From assembly GCA_038239865.1 (NCBI GenBank), contig JBBSEI010000013.1, positions 923 through 64,922 of the forward strand: DNA of 64,000 nucleotides, read 5' to 3'. The stretch comes from Chthoniobacterales bacterium (GTDB taxonomy: Bacteria > Verrucomicrobiota > Verrucomicrobiia > Chthoniobacterales > Chthoniobacteraceae). The notes beneath the pieces are model-generated. The model was not told the origin of the DNA. It saw only the letters and a program-made list of their open reading frames with translations, and did not search any database. Positions 46,819 through 53,044 of this stretch are shown in pieces (positions within the stretch are counted from its first letter, which is position 1; each line of letters begins with the position of its first letter). Made by a program: the position numbers and the translations under genes.

Positions 46819-46922
46819 GCGCGCGCAGCTTGTAGGCGTGGCAATGCTTCGCAATCAAGCGGCTGCGCTCGGTGTTTGCGGCTCATGCCATCTGGCAAAA
46901 ACAGCCCGACAGAAAATCGGAA

Positions 46923-47082
46923 GGCGTGTCTCGGGTAGGGTGGGCGTCCCGCCCGCCGTATTCCGCGTCCCGCGGAATACTTCCAGGCACCAGCGGCGGA
47001 TGAGCGCCTGCGATCATCCGCCGGGTGTCGCGTGGGACGCGCGCCACGGCGGGCGGGCCGCCCACCCTACCCGAGACACGCC
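46923..47082. repeat. ~160-bp nested-hairpin palindromic element, family copy 1
   Basis: Arms GGCGTGTCTCGGGTAGGGTGGGCGTCCCGCCCGCCGT and ACGGCGGGCGGGCCGCCCACCCTACCCGAGACACGCC. Inner perfect 10-bp stem GTATTCCGCG-TCC-CGCGGAATAC. Positions 46932-46980 are identical to 52715-52763. Confidence 0.9.
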
Positions 47083-47145
47083 GCCGTGTTTCACGGCGCA
47101 TCGATCATTTTTTCTCCGCAATTCGGTAACAGCCAGTCGTCCGGC

Positions 47146-49911
47146 TCACTTCGCGGCGATCATCTCCGGCTGCGCGGCCTTCTTTTCCACGGGTGCGCTC
47201 ACGCGCTCCACGTCCACGGCGACGACTTTGTATTCGGGGCACATCGTATCCTCGTCGCACTCGCTGCTGGTGACGACATTCACGAGGTGCTCGGGGAAAT
47301 GGAACGTGGTGTAGAGGATGCCCGGCTTCACTTCGTCGGAGACCTTCGCGTGGATGCGGACTTCACCGCGCGCGGAGAAGATGCGCACGAGATCGCCGTC
47401 GATGATCTTCTTTTTAGCAGCGTCGTCGGGATGGATGGCGAGCAGATCCTCGGTGACGATTTGCGCGTTGCCGGTGCGGCGCGTCATCGTGCCGCAGTTG
47501 TAGTGTTCGAGCACGCGGCCCGTCGTGAGGATGAACGGGAATTCGCCGAGGTGCTGCACGATCTCGCGCGACTCCTGGAAGCGGAAGAAATGGAATTTGC
47601 CGAGGCCGCGTTTGAACGTCTCGGTGTGCAGGATTTCGGTGCCGACGCAGCCTTCATTGATGGGCCACTGCTTGCCGTTGTCGCCGAGTCCCTCCCACGT
47701 CGCGCCTTTGAAAAACGGCACCACGCGCGCGATCTCCGCGAGCACGCCGTCGGGCGTGTAGTCGGGCTGCGGGATGCCCATGCGGTTCATAATGTCCACG
47801 ACGATCTGGCCGTCGGTCTTCGTGCCGGCGAGCGGCGGGATGACTTCGTTCACGCGCTGCACGCGACGTTCGCCGTTGGTGAAGGTGCCGCTCTTCTCAA
47901 AGAATGATGCGCCGGGCAGCACGACGTTTGCAAACTTCGCGGTCTCGCTCATGAAGATTTCCTGCACGACGAGGAACTCCAGCGAGTTCAGCGCCTTCTT
48001 CACGTGCTCGGTGTTCGGATCGGTCTGCACGAGGTCCTGGCCCATGACCCAAAGCGCCTTCAATTTTCCCGCGAGCGCGGCGTCATACATCTGCGGGATT
48101 TTGAGGCCGATTTGGTCGGACATTTTCGCGCCGTAGAACTGCTCATACATCGCGTGGTTCGCCGGATCGTTCACCTGCAAATAGCCCGCGCCCTGATGCG
48201 GCTGGCAGCCCATGTCGGCGGTGCCCTGCACGTTGTTCTGCCCGCGCAATGGATTCACGCCCACGCCGCGGCGGCCGATGTTGCCGGTCATCATCGCGAT
48301 GTCGGCGATGAGCATGATCGTCTTCGAGCCGTGCGTGTGCTCGGTGACACCGAGGCCGTGGAATGCCATCGCATTTTCCGCGTTCGCGTATTCGAGCGCG
48401 GCGGCCTTCACGAGATTGCGATCCACGCCGTGGATTTTTTCCAGCTCATCGAGGTCCAGCGAGCGCAGGCCATTTTCAAACTCCGCCCAGTTCTCGCAGC
48501 GCTTCCCGATGAATTCGCGATCCACGAGACCCGCTTCCCAGATGTAAAACGCGAACATGTCGAGCAGCGCGACGTTTGTGCCGGGGCGGAGTTGGAGGTG
48601 ATACTTCGCAAATTTTACGATCTCGATCTCGCGCGGGTCCACGATGATGAGCGGCACGCCCTTCATCGCGCGCTGCTTGATCTTCGCGCCCGTCACGGGA
48701 TGGCCCTCAGTCGGGTTCGCGCCGATGACGAGCATGCAATTCGTGAATTCGATATCCACGACCGAGTTTGTCGCCGCGCCGGTGCCGAATGCCTTCTGCA
48801 TCCCCCACGCCGTCGGCGAGTGGCAGACGCGCGCGCACGCATCAATGTTGTTCGTGCCGAACGCCACGCGGATGAATTTCTGCATGAGGTAATTTTCCTC
48901 ATTCGTGCAGCGCGCCGACGAAATGCCGCCGATCGCATCACCGCCGTGCTCGGCTTTGATGCGCTTCAGATTCTCCGCGATGTGACTGTAAGCCTCGTCC
49001 CAAGTCGCCTCGACGAAGTGCCCGTTGGTGCGGATGAGCGGCTTCCGCAGACGATCCTTGTGGTTGTAAAATTTGAACGCGTAGCGGCCCTTGAGGCAGG
49101 TGTGCGCGTGGTTCACCTCGGCATCGATCGGCGCCTGGATGGACAAAATTTCGCCGCCCTTCGTGGCCACGTCCAGATTGCAGCCGACGCCGCAGTACGT
49201 GCAAATCGTGCGCGTCTTCTTGGTCGCCTCGATGGACTTCGATTTGAAGACATCCGAAATCGCCGAGGTCGGGCACGCCTGCGCGCACGCGCCGCACGAG
49301 ACGCAGGTCGAGTCCGCAAAAGTGTCGTCCATCGTCTTGATGATCCGCGCATCGAAGCCGCGCCCGTGCATCGAGAGCACGAACTGCCCCTGCACTTCGT
49401 CGCACGCGCGCACGCAGCGCGAGCAGTTGATGCACTTCGAGAGGTCCGAAGTCATGTAGGGATGCGAGAGATCCTTCGTGCGGTCGAGATGGTTCTTGCC
49501 CGCCGGGTAGCGCACGCTGCGAATGCCGACTTTCGCCGCGACGGTCTGCAGCTCGCAGTTGCCGTTCACCTCGCACGTCAGGCAGTCGAGCGGATGATCG
49601 GTGAGCACGAGTTCGATGATGTTTCGGCGCAGTCCCTGGATCTTTTTTGACTCGGTAAAAATGTGCATCCCCGCTGCGAGCGGCGTGTGGCACGCGGCCA
49701 CGACGCGGCGCGCCCCGTCGGCACTCTGAGCGATCTCGACGGAGCAGACGCGGCACGCGCCATACGGTTTGAGCTGCGGCGCATCGCAAAGCGTCGGCAC
49801 ATGCCCGCGCCCGCGGTGGCGGTCGATGAAATTGAGCAGCGTGTCGCCGGACTCGAACTGCTGCGGCTGCCCGTCAATGAAGGCGGTAATGGTTGCGAGG
49901 TCTTGGACCAT
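47146..49911 (-). CDS. fdhA: NAD-dependent formate dehydrogenase catalytic (alpha) subunit, Cys type
   Basis: 921 aa. N-terminal NuoG-like 2Fe-2S/4Fe-4S cysteine clusters (CRVCSV, CLTCEVNGNCELQ, CINCSRCVRAC, CVSCGACAQACP). Molybdopterin domain with TYCGVGC and the active-site block ARVCHSPT. Confidence 0.9.
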   Translation of the reverse strand: MVQDLATITAFIDGQPQQFESGDTLLNFIDRHRGRGHVPTLCDAPQLKPYGACRVCSVEIAQSADGARRVVAACHTPLAAGMHIFTESKKIQGLRRNIIELVLTDHPLDCLTCEVNGNCELQTVAAKVGIRSVRYPAGKNHLDRTKDLSHPYMTSDLSKCINCSRCVRACDEVQGQFVLSMHGRGFDARIIKTMDDTFADSTCVSCGACAQACPTSAISDVFKSKSIEATKKTRTICTYCGVGCNLDVATKGGEILSIQAPIDAEVNHAHTCLKGRYAFKFYNHKDRLRKPLIRTNGHFVEATWDEAYSHIAENLKRIKAEHGGDAIGGISSARCTNEENYLMQKFIRVAFGTNNIDACARVCHSPTAWGMQKAFGTGAATNSVVDIEFTNCMLVIGANPTEGHPVTGAKIKQRAMKGVPLIIVDPREIEIVKFAKYHLQLRPGTNVALLDMFAFYIWEAGLVDREFIGKRCENWAEFENGLRSLDLDELEKIHGVDRNLVKAAALEYANAENAMAFHGLGVTEHTHGSKTIMLIADIAMMTGNIGRRGVGVNPLRGQNNVQGTADMGCQPHQGAGYLQVNDPANHAMYEQFYGAKMSDQIGLKIPQMYDAALAGKLKALWVMGQDLVQTDPNTEHVKKALNSLEFLVVQEIFMSETAKFANVVLPGASFFEKSGTFTNGERRVQRVNEVIPPLAGTKTDGQIVVDIMNRMGIPQPDYTPDGVLAEIARVVPFFKGATWEGLGDNGKQWPINEGCVGTEILHTETFKRGLGKFHFFRFQESREIVQHLGEFPFILTTGRVLEHYNCGTMTRRTGNAQIVTEDLLAIHPDDAAKKKIIDGDLVRIFSARGEVRIHAKVSDEVKPGILYTTFHFPEHLVNVVTSSECDEDTMCPEYKVVAVDVERVSAPVEKKAAQPEMIAAK

Positions 49912-49923
49912 GGTGATGGGAGG

Positions 49924-50349
49924 TTAAGTGGGATGAGTTTCTGCCGGGAGCAGCGAGAGCACGAAATCGTAGATGCGCTGTGCGGCGGCGAGGGCTTCGT
50001 CAAATTGTGCCCTCGTTGGCTCCGGAGATGCCTCCCAGTCGGTTTCATCCGGGTAACGGAACGAAGTGACAAGCGGAGTCAGCAGGTCGGCATCGTCGAG
50101 CAGTTCATCAAACCGTGCATTGATCTTCGAAGCGCCTTCCGCGAGCTGCGTAATGTTGTGCGTGCGCTGCACCGGAATTTCCTGGTGGTGGAGAAACGCT
50201 TTGACGGCCTTTTCGCCCGCCTGCTGGCAGTGGTAAATCGCGGTGTCCAGTGGCGGATTTTTGTCCGCGGAGAGAATCATGGCAGTCCGCAGATCGCTCC
50301 GCGCCTTTACCAGCCATGCCTTCGTGCGCAGGTGGAGATCAGTGCCCAT
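49924..50349 (-). CDS. HEPN domain protein (putative toxin partner of MNT)
   Basis: 141 aa. HEPN-like AIYHCQQAGEKAVKAFLHHQ...QRTHNITQL. Its start overlaps the MNT gene by 11 nt. Confidence 0.8.
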   Translation of the reverse strand: MGTDLHLRTKAWLVKARSDLRTAMILSADKNPPLDTAIYHCQQAGEKAVKAFLHHQEIPVQRTHNITQLAEGASKINARFDELLDDADLLTPLVTSFRYPDETDWEASPEPTRAQFDEALAAAQRIYDFVLSLLPAETHPT

Positions 50350-50710
50350 AGAGCTTCATGCCCTCGCGGAAGATTTTGTAAGTCAGGGAGGGGCGCAGAT
50401 TCCCGAAGCGGTTTGCAGCCTCGGATGTTGCCACGATGACGTCCTTGGCCATGCCGAGGCCGCGCAGACTGCGGTGCGCGCGCTGTGCACGCGCGAGCGA
50501 GTTTTCGCTGCTCTCGCCGACAACGACATAAAAATCCAAATCGCTGTCGCCCGTCGGCTCGCCCCAGGCATACGAGCCGAAAAGCCAGATTTGCTCCGGC
50601 TGGAATTCCGCGACGAGTCGCTCGACGGCGGTGTCAATAGCCGCCTGAACCTCCGGCTTCAAAACCGGGTGCGTCGGCGCGTTCGCGGTCGTTGGCAGCA
50701 CGGCGCTCAT
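50339..50710 (-). CDS. minimal nucleotidyltransferase (MNT, putative antitoxin)
   Basis: 123 aa. Pol-beta-superfamily motif LFGSYAWGEPTGDSDLDFYVVV. Its start codon shares ATGA with the stop of the upstream NuoE/F-like gene. Confidence 0.85.
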   Translation of the reverse strand: MSAVLPTTANAPTHPVLKPEVQAAIDTAVERLVAEFQPEQIWLFGSYAWGEPTGDSDLDFYVVVGESSENSLARAQRAHRSLRGLGMAKDVIVATSEAANRFGNLRPSLTYKIFREGMKLYGH

Positions 50711-52380
50711 GCTTTGCGGTCGGTTTTGAAATACGCGCTCATCTCGTCGCCGAAATATTGCAGCGCATTTTTGATCGGCAAGGGCACTCCGCCGCCGAGC
50801 GCGCAGAGCGAGGTCTGCTCCATCGTGTCGAGCAGATCGTCAATGAGCGTGCGGTCAATTTTGTAGCTGCTGTCGCTGCGCGCCTTCGCGACGAGCTCCG
50901 CGCCGCGCGTGCTGCCGAGGCGGCAGGGGAAGCATTTGCCGCAGCTTTCGTCGGCGGTGAATTGGAACAGGTGCTGGATGTATTCGATCATCGGGAACGA
51001 CTCGGGGATGCTCACGATGCCGCCGTGGCCAAGGAGAAATCCGCCTTTTTTAAACGACTCAAAATCCACGGTGATCTCGCCAAATTTTGCCGCCGGCACG
51101 ATGCCGCCGAGCGGCCCGCCGATGTGGATTGCCTTAATCTTCGTCTTGAAGCCACCCGCGAGCGCGACGACATCGCTCAGCGGTGTGCCCATCGCGACTT
51201 CGTAGATGCCGGGCTTTGCAAAATGGGTGTCGAGCGAGAGCAGCTTCGGCCCGGTGCTCTGCGCGGTGCCGACTGCGGCGTAGCCTTTACCGCCGAGCGT
51301 GAGGATCGCGTGGAGGTTGGAGAATGTCTCGACGTTGTTCACGATCGTCGGCTTGCGATAAAGCCCCTCGACCGTCGGGAAAGGCGGGCGCACGCGCACT
51401 TCCGGGCGCTGGCCTTCGATGCTCGCGAGCAGCGCCGTTTCTTCGCCGCAGATGTAAGCGCCCGCGCCCTTGATCGTCTTCAGGAAAAAATTGAATCCGC
51501 TGCCGAGAATGTTTTTCCCGAGCAACCCCGCGGCGTGCAGTTCCGCGATGGCCGCGTTCACGATCCGAATCGAATCCGGATACTCTGCGCGGATGTAGAG
51601 CACGCCGACTTCCGCGCCGGCGAACCACCCCGCGACCATCATGCCGAGCAGCACCGAGTGCGGGCGCTGCTCCATGAGATACTTGTCAATGTAAGCGCCG
51701 GGATCGCCCTCGTCCGCGTTGCAGACGACATACTTCACCGCGCCTTCGCTCGCGCGGCAGGAGGACCATTTGAAGTGCAGCGGAAATCCCGCGCCACCGC
51801 GCCCGCGCAGGCCGGAGTCCTTGAGTTCGCCCGCGAGCCAGTCGCGATCTTTTCCAAGGAGCGCGCGGAAGGGCTCGTAGTATTTTTCAATGCCGGGGAA
51901 CGGTGCCGTGAGTTGCGCTGGCTGGAGGTGAGACACGACCGCGTAGCGATCCTCCGCATCGCCTTCGCCGGTGGTGAAAAGTTCGCCGAGTGCGGCATCG
52001 GACTGGCCGGAAAAATTTCGCCCGTCGAACTGAAACGCCCCGCCCTGATGACAGCGCCCGAGGCAGCAGATGTGCCCGATCGCATTTTCCGAAAAATGCG
52101 TGTCCAGCGAGTCGTGCAGCTTCTCCTGCGTCCCTGCGCACAGGCACGCTGAGCCATTGCAGATGAACACCTTCTTTCCTGCATTTTCCTTCTTCAAAAA
52201 ATCGTAGAACGAAACCGCGCCGAGCGTGATCGCATCGCCGAAGAGCGATTTCTCGCCGAGCACTCGCACCGTCTTGGGTTGCGCTGCTGTGCCTGTTTGA
52301 TCCGCAGCCTCCACCATTCGCTCGAAAAGATTCTTATCGGCGCTTTTGCGAAAGGAGAGTGCGCTGAGGTTTTCGGACAT
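50707..52380 (-). CDS. NuoE/NuoF-fusion diaphorase (beta) subunit of NAD-dependent formate dehydrogenase
   Basis: Starts at MSENLSAL. N-terminal NuoE-like 2Fe-2S cysteines (CNGSAC...CLGRC). NuoF blocks GRGGAGFP, CNADEGDPGA and YICGEETAL, plus the 4Fe-4S cluster ESCGKCFPCR...CALG. Confidence 0.85.
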   Translation of the reverse strand: MSENLSALSFRKSADKNLFERMVEAADQTGTAAQPKTVRVLGEKSLFGDAITLGAVSFYDFLKKENAGKKVFICNGSACLCAGTQEKLHDSLDTHFSENAIGHICCLGRCHQGGAFQFDGRNFSGQSDAALGELFTTGEGDAEDRYAVVSHLQPAQLTAPFPGIEKYYEPFRALLGKDRDWLAGELKDSGLRGRGGAGFPLHFKWSSCRASEGAVKYVVCNADEGDPGAYIDKYLMEQRPHSVLLGMMVAGWFAGAEVGVLYIRAEYPDSIRIVNAAIAELHAAGLLGKNILGSGFNFFLKTIKGAGAYICGEETALLASIEGQRPEVRVRPPFPTVEGLYRKPTIVNNVETFSNLHAILTLGGKGYAAVGTAQSTGPKLLSLDTHFAKPGIYEVAMGTPLSDVVALAGGFKTKIKAIHIGGPLGGIVPAAKFGEITVDFESFKKGGFLLGHGGIVSIPESFPMIEYIQHLFQFTADESCGKCFPCRLGSTRGAELVAKARSDSSYKIDRTLIDDLLDTMEQTSLCALGGGVPLPIKNALQYFGDEMSAYFKTDRKA

Positions 52381-52467
52381 GGGAACGGGGAGTGCGTGGG
52401 GGCAGACATTCAAAGCACGTCCTCCGCGACTTTGCCAGCGTTCTAAGAAATCGCGCGGGCCATCCGT

Positions 52468-52683
52468 ATGCCTCATAGACACCCCATGCCTCCCACGGAC
52501 ACGCCCGAATTCATCGCCTTGCTGGACCGTTACCAGCGGATGCTCATCGGGTATGCGCGCAGCATCACAGGCGATCTCGATTCGGCGCGCGATGTGCGGA
52601 GTTCATCTCGCTGCTGGAAAAGGCGCAGGCTCTGGCGCGCTGACATCATTGCGATCTTATACCGTCTTTCGGAAACAAGATGA
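52468..52683 (+). pseudogene. 5' remnant of an ECF-type sigma-70 factor gene
   Basis: Only the first ~45 codons look sigma-like (DTPEFIALLDRYQRMLIGYARSITGDLDSARDV, region 2.1/2.2 pattern). The rest is Arg/Ser/Trp-rich noise and the ORF ends just before palindromic element copy 2. No region 4 is found in any frame. Confidence 0.4.
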
Positions 52684-52705
52684 CAGATGCGCGGCGAAGC
52701 GGGAT

Positions 52706-52866
52706 GGCGTGCAGCGGGTAGGGTGGGCGTCCCGCCCGCCGTATTCCGCGTCCCGCGGAATACAATTCGGACGCCGCTGGCGTAAAGAACACCTGGATTC
52801 TTCCGCCCGGTGCCGCGCGGGACGCGCGCACGGCAGGCGGGACGCCTCTCCTACCCGAGACATGCC
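52706..52866. repeat. ~160-bp nested-hairpin palindromic element, family copy 2
   Basis: Same orientation as copy 1. The 49-bp block CGGGTAGGGTGGGCGTCCCGCCCGCCGTATTCCGCGTCCCGCGGAATAC is identical. The right arm is degenerate (ACGGCAGGCGGGACGCCTCTCCTACCCGAGACATGCC). Confidence 0.9.
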
Positions 52867-53044
52867 CTCCCGCTTTCTGTCCGGTTATTTGTGAAAGATG
52901 GCATCAGGCACGCGATGGCGCGACCGCGCGGACTGTCGCCGCAATCGCACCGCGCGCGACGGGGCGACTGCCGGAAAATTTCAGAGCCGCGAGGATGGGG
53001 CATCCTCGCGGCTCTTTCTTGGGGAGGGGACTGCGATGGGGAAA

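Follow-up and report, generated by a model that had tools for sequence, protein, structure and literature searches.

The MNT-HEPN gene pair that lies between two formate dehydrogenase (FDH) subunit genes of a Chthoniobacterales bacterium represents one of several alleles at the nuoF-fdhA junction of Verrucomicrobiota, a polymorphic site at which cassettes recur. Because this site holds related cassettes, unrelated cassettes or none in sister species, it is a long-lived, swappable islet and not a one-off insertion. The pair is probably a promoterless Class II MNT-HEPN toxin-antitoxin (TA) or defence islet that rides on the FDH transcript of its host, and we think that it is kept up as a multi-allelic presence/absence polymorphism, its alleles being exchanged through recombination in the conserved flanks. 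An earlier sequence-only reading had taken the pair for a singular oddity, a view that does not survive comparison with other Verrucomicrobiota.

Organization of the FDH Locus

The window is the whole stretch of 64,000 nucleotides that was analysed. The features of the locus are as follows.

52660-52907, minus strand: palindromic element, second directly oriented copy, lying ~280 nt 5' to the start of nuoF
50707-52380, minus strand: nuoE/F-like (FdsB-like) diaphorase gene, from HMM domains and homologues
50707-50766, minus strand: final ~60 nt of nuoF, about 12-20 codons, where the variable segment has its left edge, from the identity profile
50339-50710, minus strand: MNT, 123 amino acids, PF01909/PF18765
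49924-50349, minus strand: HEPN, 141 amino acids, PF05168
49912-49923, minus strand: spacer of 12 nt, CCTCCCATCACC, from the HEPN stop to the start of fdhA, marking the right edge of the variable segment
47146-49911, minus strand: fdhA, from TIGR01591 and Pfam domains
46882-47128, minus strand: palindromic repeat element directly 3' of fdhA, inverted repeat I3 and direct repeats D1/D2/D6

The TGA stop of nuoF overlaps the ATG of MNT as ATGA at 50710-50707, and the successive gaps nuoF/MNT/HEPN/fdhA are -4, -11 and +12 nt; the spacer CCTCCCATCACC has no Shine-Dalgarno-like GGAGG before the fdhA ATG at 49911. The gene order, coordinates, ATGA, 11-nt overlap and 12-nt spacer given in the sequence-only reading are correct to the base, and the MNT and HEPN motifs that it quoted are present in the translations. 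More than 25 independent contigs of other genomes and metagenomes carry the four genes in this order, so the juxtaposition is not due to chance, and the embedded pair is just as tightly spaced in over 20 further occurrences. A consensus scan of 49924-50710 found no promoter-like or terminator-like site, in agreement with the earlier statement that the tight gaps leave no room for a separate promoter or terminator; verrucomicrobial promoters are poorly defined, however, and an internal promoter may still lie in the 3' part of nuoF or in the cassette. The arrangement suggests that the pair is read on a single transcript, from the FDH promoter only, and the spacing points to translational coupling across the junctions. 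Codon usage of the insert is unlike that of the flanking genes, a comparison that the sequence-only reading had proposed.

The nuoE/F-like open reading frame remains open back to a GTG at 52482, and homologues begin at the ATG at 52380, the start assigned previously. Its product contains Complex1_51K, SLBB and NADH_4Fe-4S domains together with a weak 2Fe-2S_thioredx match in a NuoE-like N terminus (Pfam), and is 76-89% identical to 80 verrucomicrobial homologues. The protein scores 379 bits against TIGR01959, below the cut-off of 558, and is therefore described as NuoF-like, not as NuoF. FdhA scores 793 bits (cut-off 666) against TIGR01591, the formate dehydrogenase alpha subunit model, and includes Molybdopterin, Molydop_binding, Molybdop_Fe4S4, NADH-G_4Fe-4S_3 and Fer2_4 domains, with the NuoG-like Fe-S domains at the N terminus. 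On the basis of these domains, fdhA is assigned as the molybdopterin catalytic subunit and the nuoE/F-like gene as the diaphorase subunit of an NAD-linked FDH. An FdhA with NuoG-like Fe-S domains and a partner that is both NuoE-like and NuoF-like resembles the NAD-dependent Mo/W FDHs of the FdsABG type. This enzyme type includes two-subunit alpha/beta FDHs with a fused NuoE/F-like beta subunit, such as Methylobacterium FDH1. To our knowledge, a TA module between the subunit genes of an FDH operon of the FdsABG or alpha/beta type has never been described.

The palindromic element after fdhA has a predicted RNA fold of -176.6 kcal/mol (z = -11) and is followed by a terminator-like site, a small hairpin with a U-run at 46921-46905; together these likely form the 3' end of the transcription unit. 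The palindromic core has three exact or near-exact matches in the window as compared with 0 expected. The operon promoter must fall within 52381-52660, a region bounded by the second palindromic copy. An Rfam search of the operon leader found no riboswitch or other known RNA, the sole match in the window being a tRNA elsewhere.

The MNT and HEPN Proteins

All four gene names given in the sequence-only reading are supported by profile searches. MNT matches PF01909 with 32.6 bits (cut-off 21) and PF18765 with 32.5 bits (cut-off 26.9). It has an exact GSX10DXD catalytic motif, as defined in PMC7641770, comprising G45, S46 ... D57, L58 and D59; the motif is kept in all embedded variants and is invariant across 46 homologues. 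MNT is a minimal Pol-beta-type nucleotidyltransferase and the predicted antitoxin. Its score of 29.2 bits (E 6.6e-7) against the NCBIfam model for type VII MntA antitoxins (NF047752) is below the 60-bit cut-off and places it outside that family. The nearest PDB sequences are 9XBD, 1WOT and 5YEP (E 0.02 for 5YEP). In PADLOC, MNT matches only the candidate family PDC-S09 and HEPN matches none, a result that is uninformative.

HEPN matches PF05168 with 79.5 bits (E 3e-22, cut-off 22). The AF2 model (pLDDT 91.6) has TT1696 (1UFB) as its best Foldseek match, with TM scores of 0.80/0.88, and the search with this predicted model also finds ST0689 (1WOL), 4NQF, 3O10 and 1O3U; the TM score to HepT structures is only ~0.5. 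The PF05168 match and the four-helix fold therefore identify a HEPN domain of the classical HEPN-T type. HEPN has no match to PF01934 or to NCBIfam HepT, which places it outside the HepT (DUF86, Class I) group, and its sequence contains neither an Rx4-6H motif nor RX4HXY, the RNase/AMPylation motif of characterised HepT toxins. The corresponding site is the variant R98-Y-P-D101...D104 with no His downstream, as in variant HEPN active sites, and H64 and R98 are invariant in 13 and in 46 homologues, Y99 and P100 likewise in the 46. HEPN-T proteins in which D replaces H possess an alternative conserved His (helix 2-3 insert; PMC3710099), and Class II PF05168/PF01909 modules retain GSX10DXD and a conserved Tyr and lack RX4HXY (PMC7641770). 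The literature search found no Class II (PF05168) HEPN reported as toxic or as an RNase. HEPN is accordingly named here a classical PF05168 (HEPN-T or Class II) protein and a predicted toxin, and since it is of the Class II type and lacks RX4HXY, the term toxin-antitoxin is used only as a prediction. The prediction draws indirect support from the layout of the pair as two genes, its patchy occurrence, the variety of its contexts and its rapid diversification. The strongly conserved C terminus of HEPN (IYDFVLSLLP..THP) was considered as a junction-specific feature, for example a ribosome-binding region for fdhA or a recombination site, and rejected, the motif being found also in members of the family that are far from FDH operons.

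Among described systems, the pair resembles the Class II HEPN/MNT modules (PF05168 + PF01909; Yao et al. 2020, PMC7641770) in having MNT followed by HEPN in overlapping reading frames. It shares with these and with HEPN-T proteins (Anantharaman et al. 2013, PMC3710099) the exact GSX10DXD, the absence of RX4HXY, Asp in place of His, H64 and Y99. Thermus TT1696 (1UFB)/1WOT and ST0689 (1WOL) are structural representatives of this group. Class II modules are described as autonomous two-gene units, whereas the pair in the window is embedded and belongs to a site-specific lineage. MntA/HepT has a similar layout, with a small nucleotidyltransferase upstream of HEPN and a shared catalytic motif, and a weak similarity to MntA is detectable (E 7e-7). 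However, MNT reaches 29 of the required 60 bits, and HEPN has no HepT/DUF86 match, no RX4HXY and a TM score of ~0.5; the pair is not in the characterised HepT/MntA family, although it may work like it. In a literature search that combined HEPN, minimal nucleotidyltransferase and FDH, the only paper found was a Methylacidiphilum genome paper, in which the terms are mentioned separately.

Occupancy of the nuoF-fdhA Junction

The junction was surveyed in 80 verrucomicrobial species, and the insert is present, absent or replaced among relatives, bearing on the synteny comparison that the sequence-only reading had suggested. The junction is empty in 31 of the 80 species, with nuoF and fdhA separated by 21-119 nt. 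MNT-HEPN is found at about 13 junctions; it lies between nuoF and fdhA in loci L002, L016, L021, L039, L045, L056 and L077 and is present as a fused gene in L004, a copy from which His64 and the YHCQQ motif are gone. HEPN homologues with 89%, 67% and 54% identity have a context identical to that in the window, and linkage to FDH is also seen for another ~15 of 80 metagenomic loci with HEPN homologues. No MNT-HEPN is present at about 60% of the junctions that could be read, including those of sister species with 94-95% identical FdhA, and the junction states are scattered among sister species in the NuoF tree.

Other occupants are also found. L015 has VapB and PIN genes plus a 3' HEPN remnant, L033 has AbiTii together with an MNT-HEPN pair in which HEPN is truncated, and L036 has only a decayed HEPN remnant. 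An unannotated pair of 180 and 61 residues occupies six junctions, at one of them in tandem with MNT-HEPN, and L078 has tandem cassettes that are 13 nt apart. In the split operons L110 and L112, the cassette stays beside either gene. At empty sites, the nuoF stop and spacer, TAACCCATCACGACC-ATG, are homologous to the HEPN stop and spacer of the window.

Boundaries, Exchange and Selection

The variable segment extends from the last ~60 nt of nuoF through the HEPN stop codon and has sharp bounds. In Chthoniobacterales, occupied and empty loci have an identity of 0.69 in the nuoF tail as compared with 0.85-0.96 everywhere else, whereas the tail identity within the occupied or the empty class is 0.84-0.87; outside the last 60 nt of nuoF, the flanks of the two classes are undifferentiated. 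The tail reads GDEMSAYFK... where the junction is occupied and E(E/D)ELRPFL... where it is empty, and the ATGA overlap is common to occupied loci within this order. Homology of the window to the empty locus L003 ends 37 nt before the nuoF stop and resumes 3 nt before the fdhA ATG.

Several loci whose fdhA genes differ by no more than 2%, or not at all, have cassettes that are 44-50% divergent (L039 and L120; L086 and L100 as compared with L107), and the homology breaks are restricted to the interior of the cassette; the data are mostly from MAGs and metagenome contigs, in which chimeric assembly could inflate the apparent mosaicism. The dS of the cassette is often above that of the flanks. Vertical co-divergence of cassette and operon was rejected as a description of these data, the Mantel r of 0.65 arising from the between-order split only (within orders, r = -0.07 and 0.34). 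The cassettes come without a transposase, an integrase or any attC-like sequence; the one in the window is not flanked by repeats, and no integrase is next to the operon in the window, L082 or L083. The dN/dS ratios are 0.08-0.21 for MNT and 0.04-0.16 for HEPN, and the genes in the window have values of 0.06-0.21 relative to relatives at dS near 0.9-1.7. Purifying selection acts on both genes, with a strength similar to that on the enzyme genes.

Relationships within the MNT-HEPN Family

A neighbor-joining tree was made from 79 MNT-HEPN pairs, comprising 22 unique FDH-embedded and 57 non-FDH pairs. All 22 embedded pairs form one clade, with a bootstrap of 73% for MNT+HEPN and 71% for MNT alone; in the tree from HEPN only, the value for this clade is 11%. 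The clade divides by host order into Chthoniobacterales and Verrucomicrobiales. The nearest neighbor outside its own subtype is FDH-embedded for 22 of 22 embedded pairs (background 0.28), and none of the 57 non-FDH pairs has an FDH-embedded nearest neighbor. At least six embedded subtypes are present, mutually 41-53% divergent and separated by 0.50-0.55 from non-FDH relatives. The embedded pairs thus form one clade, with moderate support, inside a larger family from elsewhere in genomes. Outside FDH operons, the family occurs in varied contexts, always as MNT followed by HEPN, and behaves as ordinary mobile TA modules do. One non-FDH member lies 8 nt after thrS. A family-wide habit of abutting the 3' end of a host gene was considered and rejected: in a rough ORF/GC3 heuristic, upstream gaps are 13-593 nt and orientations are mixed.

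Proposed Mode of Action and Alternatives

In the proposed mechanism, the FDH promoter would be the sole source of expression and would give one transcript, and translation would pass from nuoF to MNT through the ATGA, from MNT to HEPN through the 11-nt overlap, and from HEPN to fdhA across the 12-nt spacer. By analogy with characterised MNT/HEPN systems, MNT may keep HEPN harmless by nucleotidylylating it, by binding it, or both; the candidate acceptor is the invariant Tyr99, which adjoins Arg98. Once MNT activity falls, HEPN would act on RNA through an alternative HEPN-T active site made up of Arg98 and His64. A possible trigger is an arrest of operon transcription or the shutdown of host expression by a phage. 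We infer toxicity, the chemistry of neutralisation, this trigger and any hostage effect. Because fdhA is downstream of the cassette, a nonsense or frameshift mutation with a polar effect there would harm FDH as well, and this cost may help to keep the cassette intact. The cassette itself is not a recent accident; it belongs to an MNT-HEPN lineage that is specific to the junction and present in both Chthoniobacterales and Verrucomicrobiales. The junction is multi-allelic, since it may be empty, hold MNT-HEPN of at least six subtypes, or hold another TA/Abi cassette, and homologous recombination in the highly conserved nuoF/fdhA flanks probably swaps the alleles among related genomes. A more speculative extension, which we regard as unlikely, treats the junction as an ancient hostage locus in which a TA lineage has lasted over the time scale of orders, fdhA transcription and translation having to run through the toxin gene so that selection for FDH purges polar mutations, in which balancing or diversifying selection maintains empty, multi-subtype and replacement alleles as a trans-species polymorphism, and in which operon shut-off triggers RNase-mediated arrest; phage defence, or anti-addiction between alleles, might then be the diversifying force.

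The sequence-only reading offered an addiction module, a stress-responsive brake and a domesticated pair as possible roles; comparison among relatives favors the TA islet and disfavors an FDH-specific accessory. Retention of one lineage at one site in two orders under purifying selection is also expected of a domesticated accessory, recruited long ago, which might tune fdhA expression by cleaving the polycistronic mRNA, act as a host-beneficial brake that links growth arrest to loss of FDH expression, or nucleotidylylate an FDH subunit. Selection on both genes about equal to that on the enzyme genes fits such a role, as does expression that is apparently tied to that of the operon, more than 20 independent occurrences leaving no space for separate signals. 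It is nevertheless rather unlikely, because about 60% of readable junctions do without the cassette, even with 94-95% identical FdhA, unrelated cassettes (VapBC, AbiTii and the nucleotidyltransferase-like pair) use the same site, decayed remnants and a fused copy without the conserved His occur, and the cassette remains with either gene in the split operons; hypervariable mosaic alleles on identical fdhA are, moreover, a trait of conflict systems. A site that may be empty or may hold VapBC, AbiTii or another pair thus favors a selfish or defensive TA islet over an FDH-specific accessory. We consider it distinctly unlikely that the pair is a non-toxic two-subunit nucleotidyltransferase, in which HEPN binds the substrate for MNT, a small molecule or protein is modified and there is no TA function. 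Kanamycin nucleotidyltransferase was the analogy from which the idea of MNT and HEPN as two subunits first came. PMC3710099 discusses HEPN as a subunit that binds the substrate for MNT, and also domestication into modifying enzymes. A PF05168 HEPN without Rx4-6H, with a fold nearest to TT1696, ST0689 and the sacsin HEPN and not to HepT RNases, is consistent with such an enzyme, and a fused MNT-HEPN open reading frame does exist at the same site in L004. That fusion, however, is without His64 and YHCQQ and resembles decay, not an ancestral design, and the invariant His64 and Arg98 fit the alternative HEPN-T active site predicted in PMC3710099; the patchy distribution, many contexts, rapid diversification and company of VapBC and AbiTii are the behavior of TA or defence genes.

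Independent, repeated capture from a genomic pool at a permissive or targeted hot spot, with long residence as an artefact of weak signal, would account for the arrival of unrelated cassettes at the same site and for junction states scattered over the host tree. The subtypes are also almost as far from each other as from non-FDH relatives, and the HEPN bootstrap is only 11%. This origin is very unlikely in view of the single FDH clade, split by order, in both the MNT+HEPN and the MNT-only trees (73% and 71%) and the asymmetric nearest-neighbor counts (22 of 22 against a background of 0.28, and 0 of 57 in reverse). The shared nuoF tail type, the ATGA in Chthoniobacterales and the homologous stop and spacer before fdhA also argue against it, as do the lack of transposase, integrase or attC-like sequence with the cassettes and the 13-nt distance in the L078 tandem. 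It is extremely improbable that the pair is a dead TA remnant, decaying neutrally and tolerated as a passenger between two genes. Decay is indeed seen in the L015 and L036 remnants, the truncated L033 HEPN and the degenerate L004 fusion, and the insert differs from the flanks in codon usage, but the reading frames in the window are intact with all of the family-invariant residues, and coding has been kept despite many synonymous changes (dN/dS 0.06-0.21 at dS near 0.9-1.7), which largely refutes this reading.

The preferred reading, a TA islet, has a counterpart in the chromosomal TA islets between core genes that spread by homologous recombination of their flanks in a survey of Photorhabdus (PMC13617665), beside which core-genome defence hot spots are named as comparable. 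Both involve a small cassette without mobility genes, presence/absence and replacement, remnants and recombining flanks. In the present locus, however, the flanking genes are consecutive, closely spaced and probably coupled cistrons of one two-subunit enzyme, the left bound is inside coding sequence, and one TA lineage extends across two orders with at least six subtypes. Integron cassettes, often TA pairs, are promoterless, as the pair in the window appears to be, and likewise occupy one fixed site behind an upstream promoter and are occasionally in tandem, as in L078, but the L078 cassettes are a mere 13 nt apart and the bounds are a coding tail and a stop codon. Of the features that would define an integron array, attC-like repeats were not found around the cassette in the window, nor an adjacent integrase in the window, L082 or L083.

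Implications for TA Modules and Their Hosts

The usual picture of a TA module is of an autonomous pair of genes that regulates itself and resides on a mobile element or in an intergenic islet. This locus represents another TA lifestyle, in which an apparently promoterless lineage is inside the operon of a two-subunit enzyme, with its left bound within the upstream gene; purifying selection preserves it, and yet relatives exchange it, at a site shared with other TA/Abi cassettes. Operon-based prediction would mislabel the pair as FDH accessories. The locus may serve as a test bed for whether expression of a host operon can substitute for TA autoregulation and whether polarity on a downstream host gene shields a toxin gene from decay, and it may provide a route into the Class II (PF05168) HEPN/MNT modules, the dominant MNT-HEPN class in archaea.

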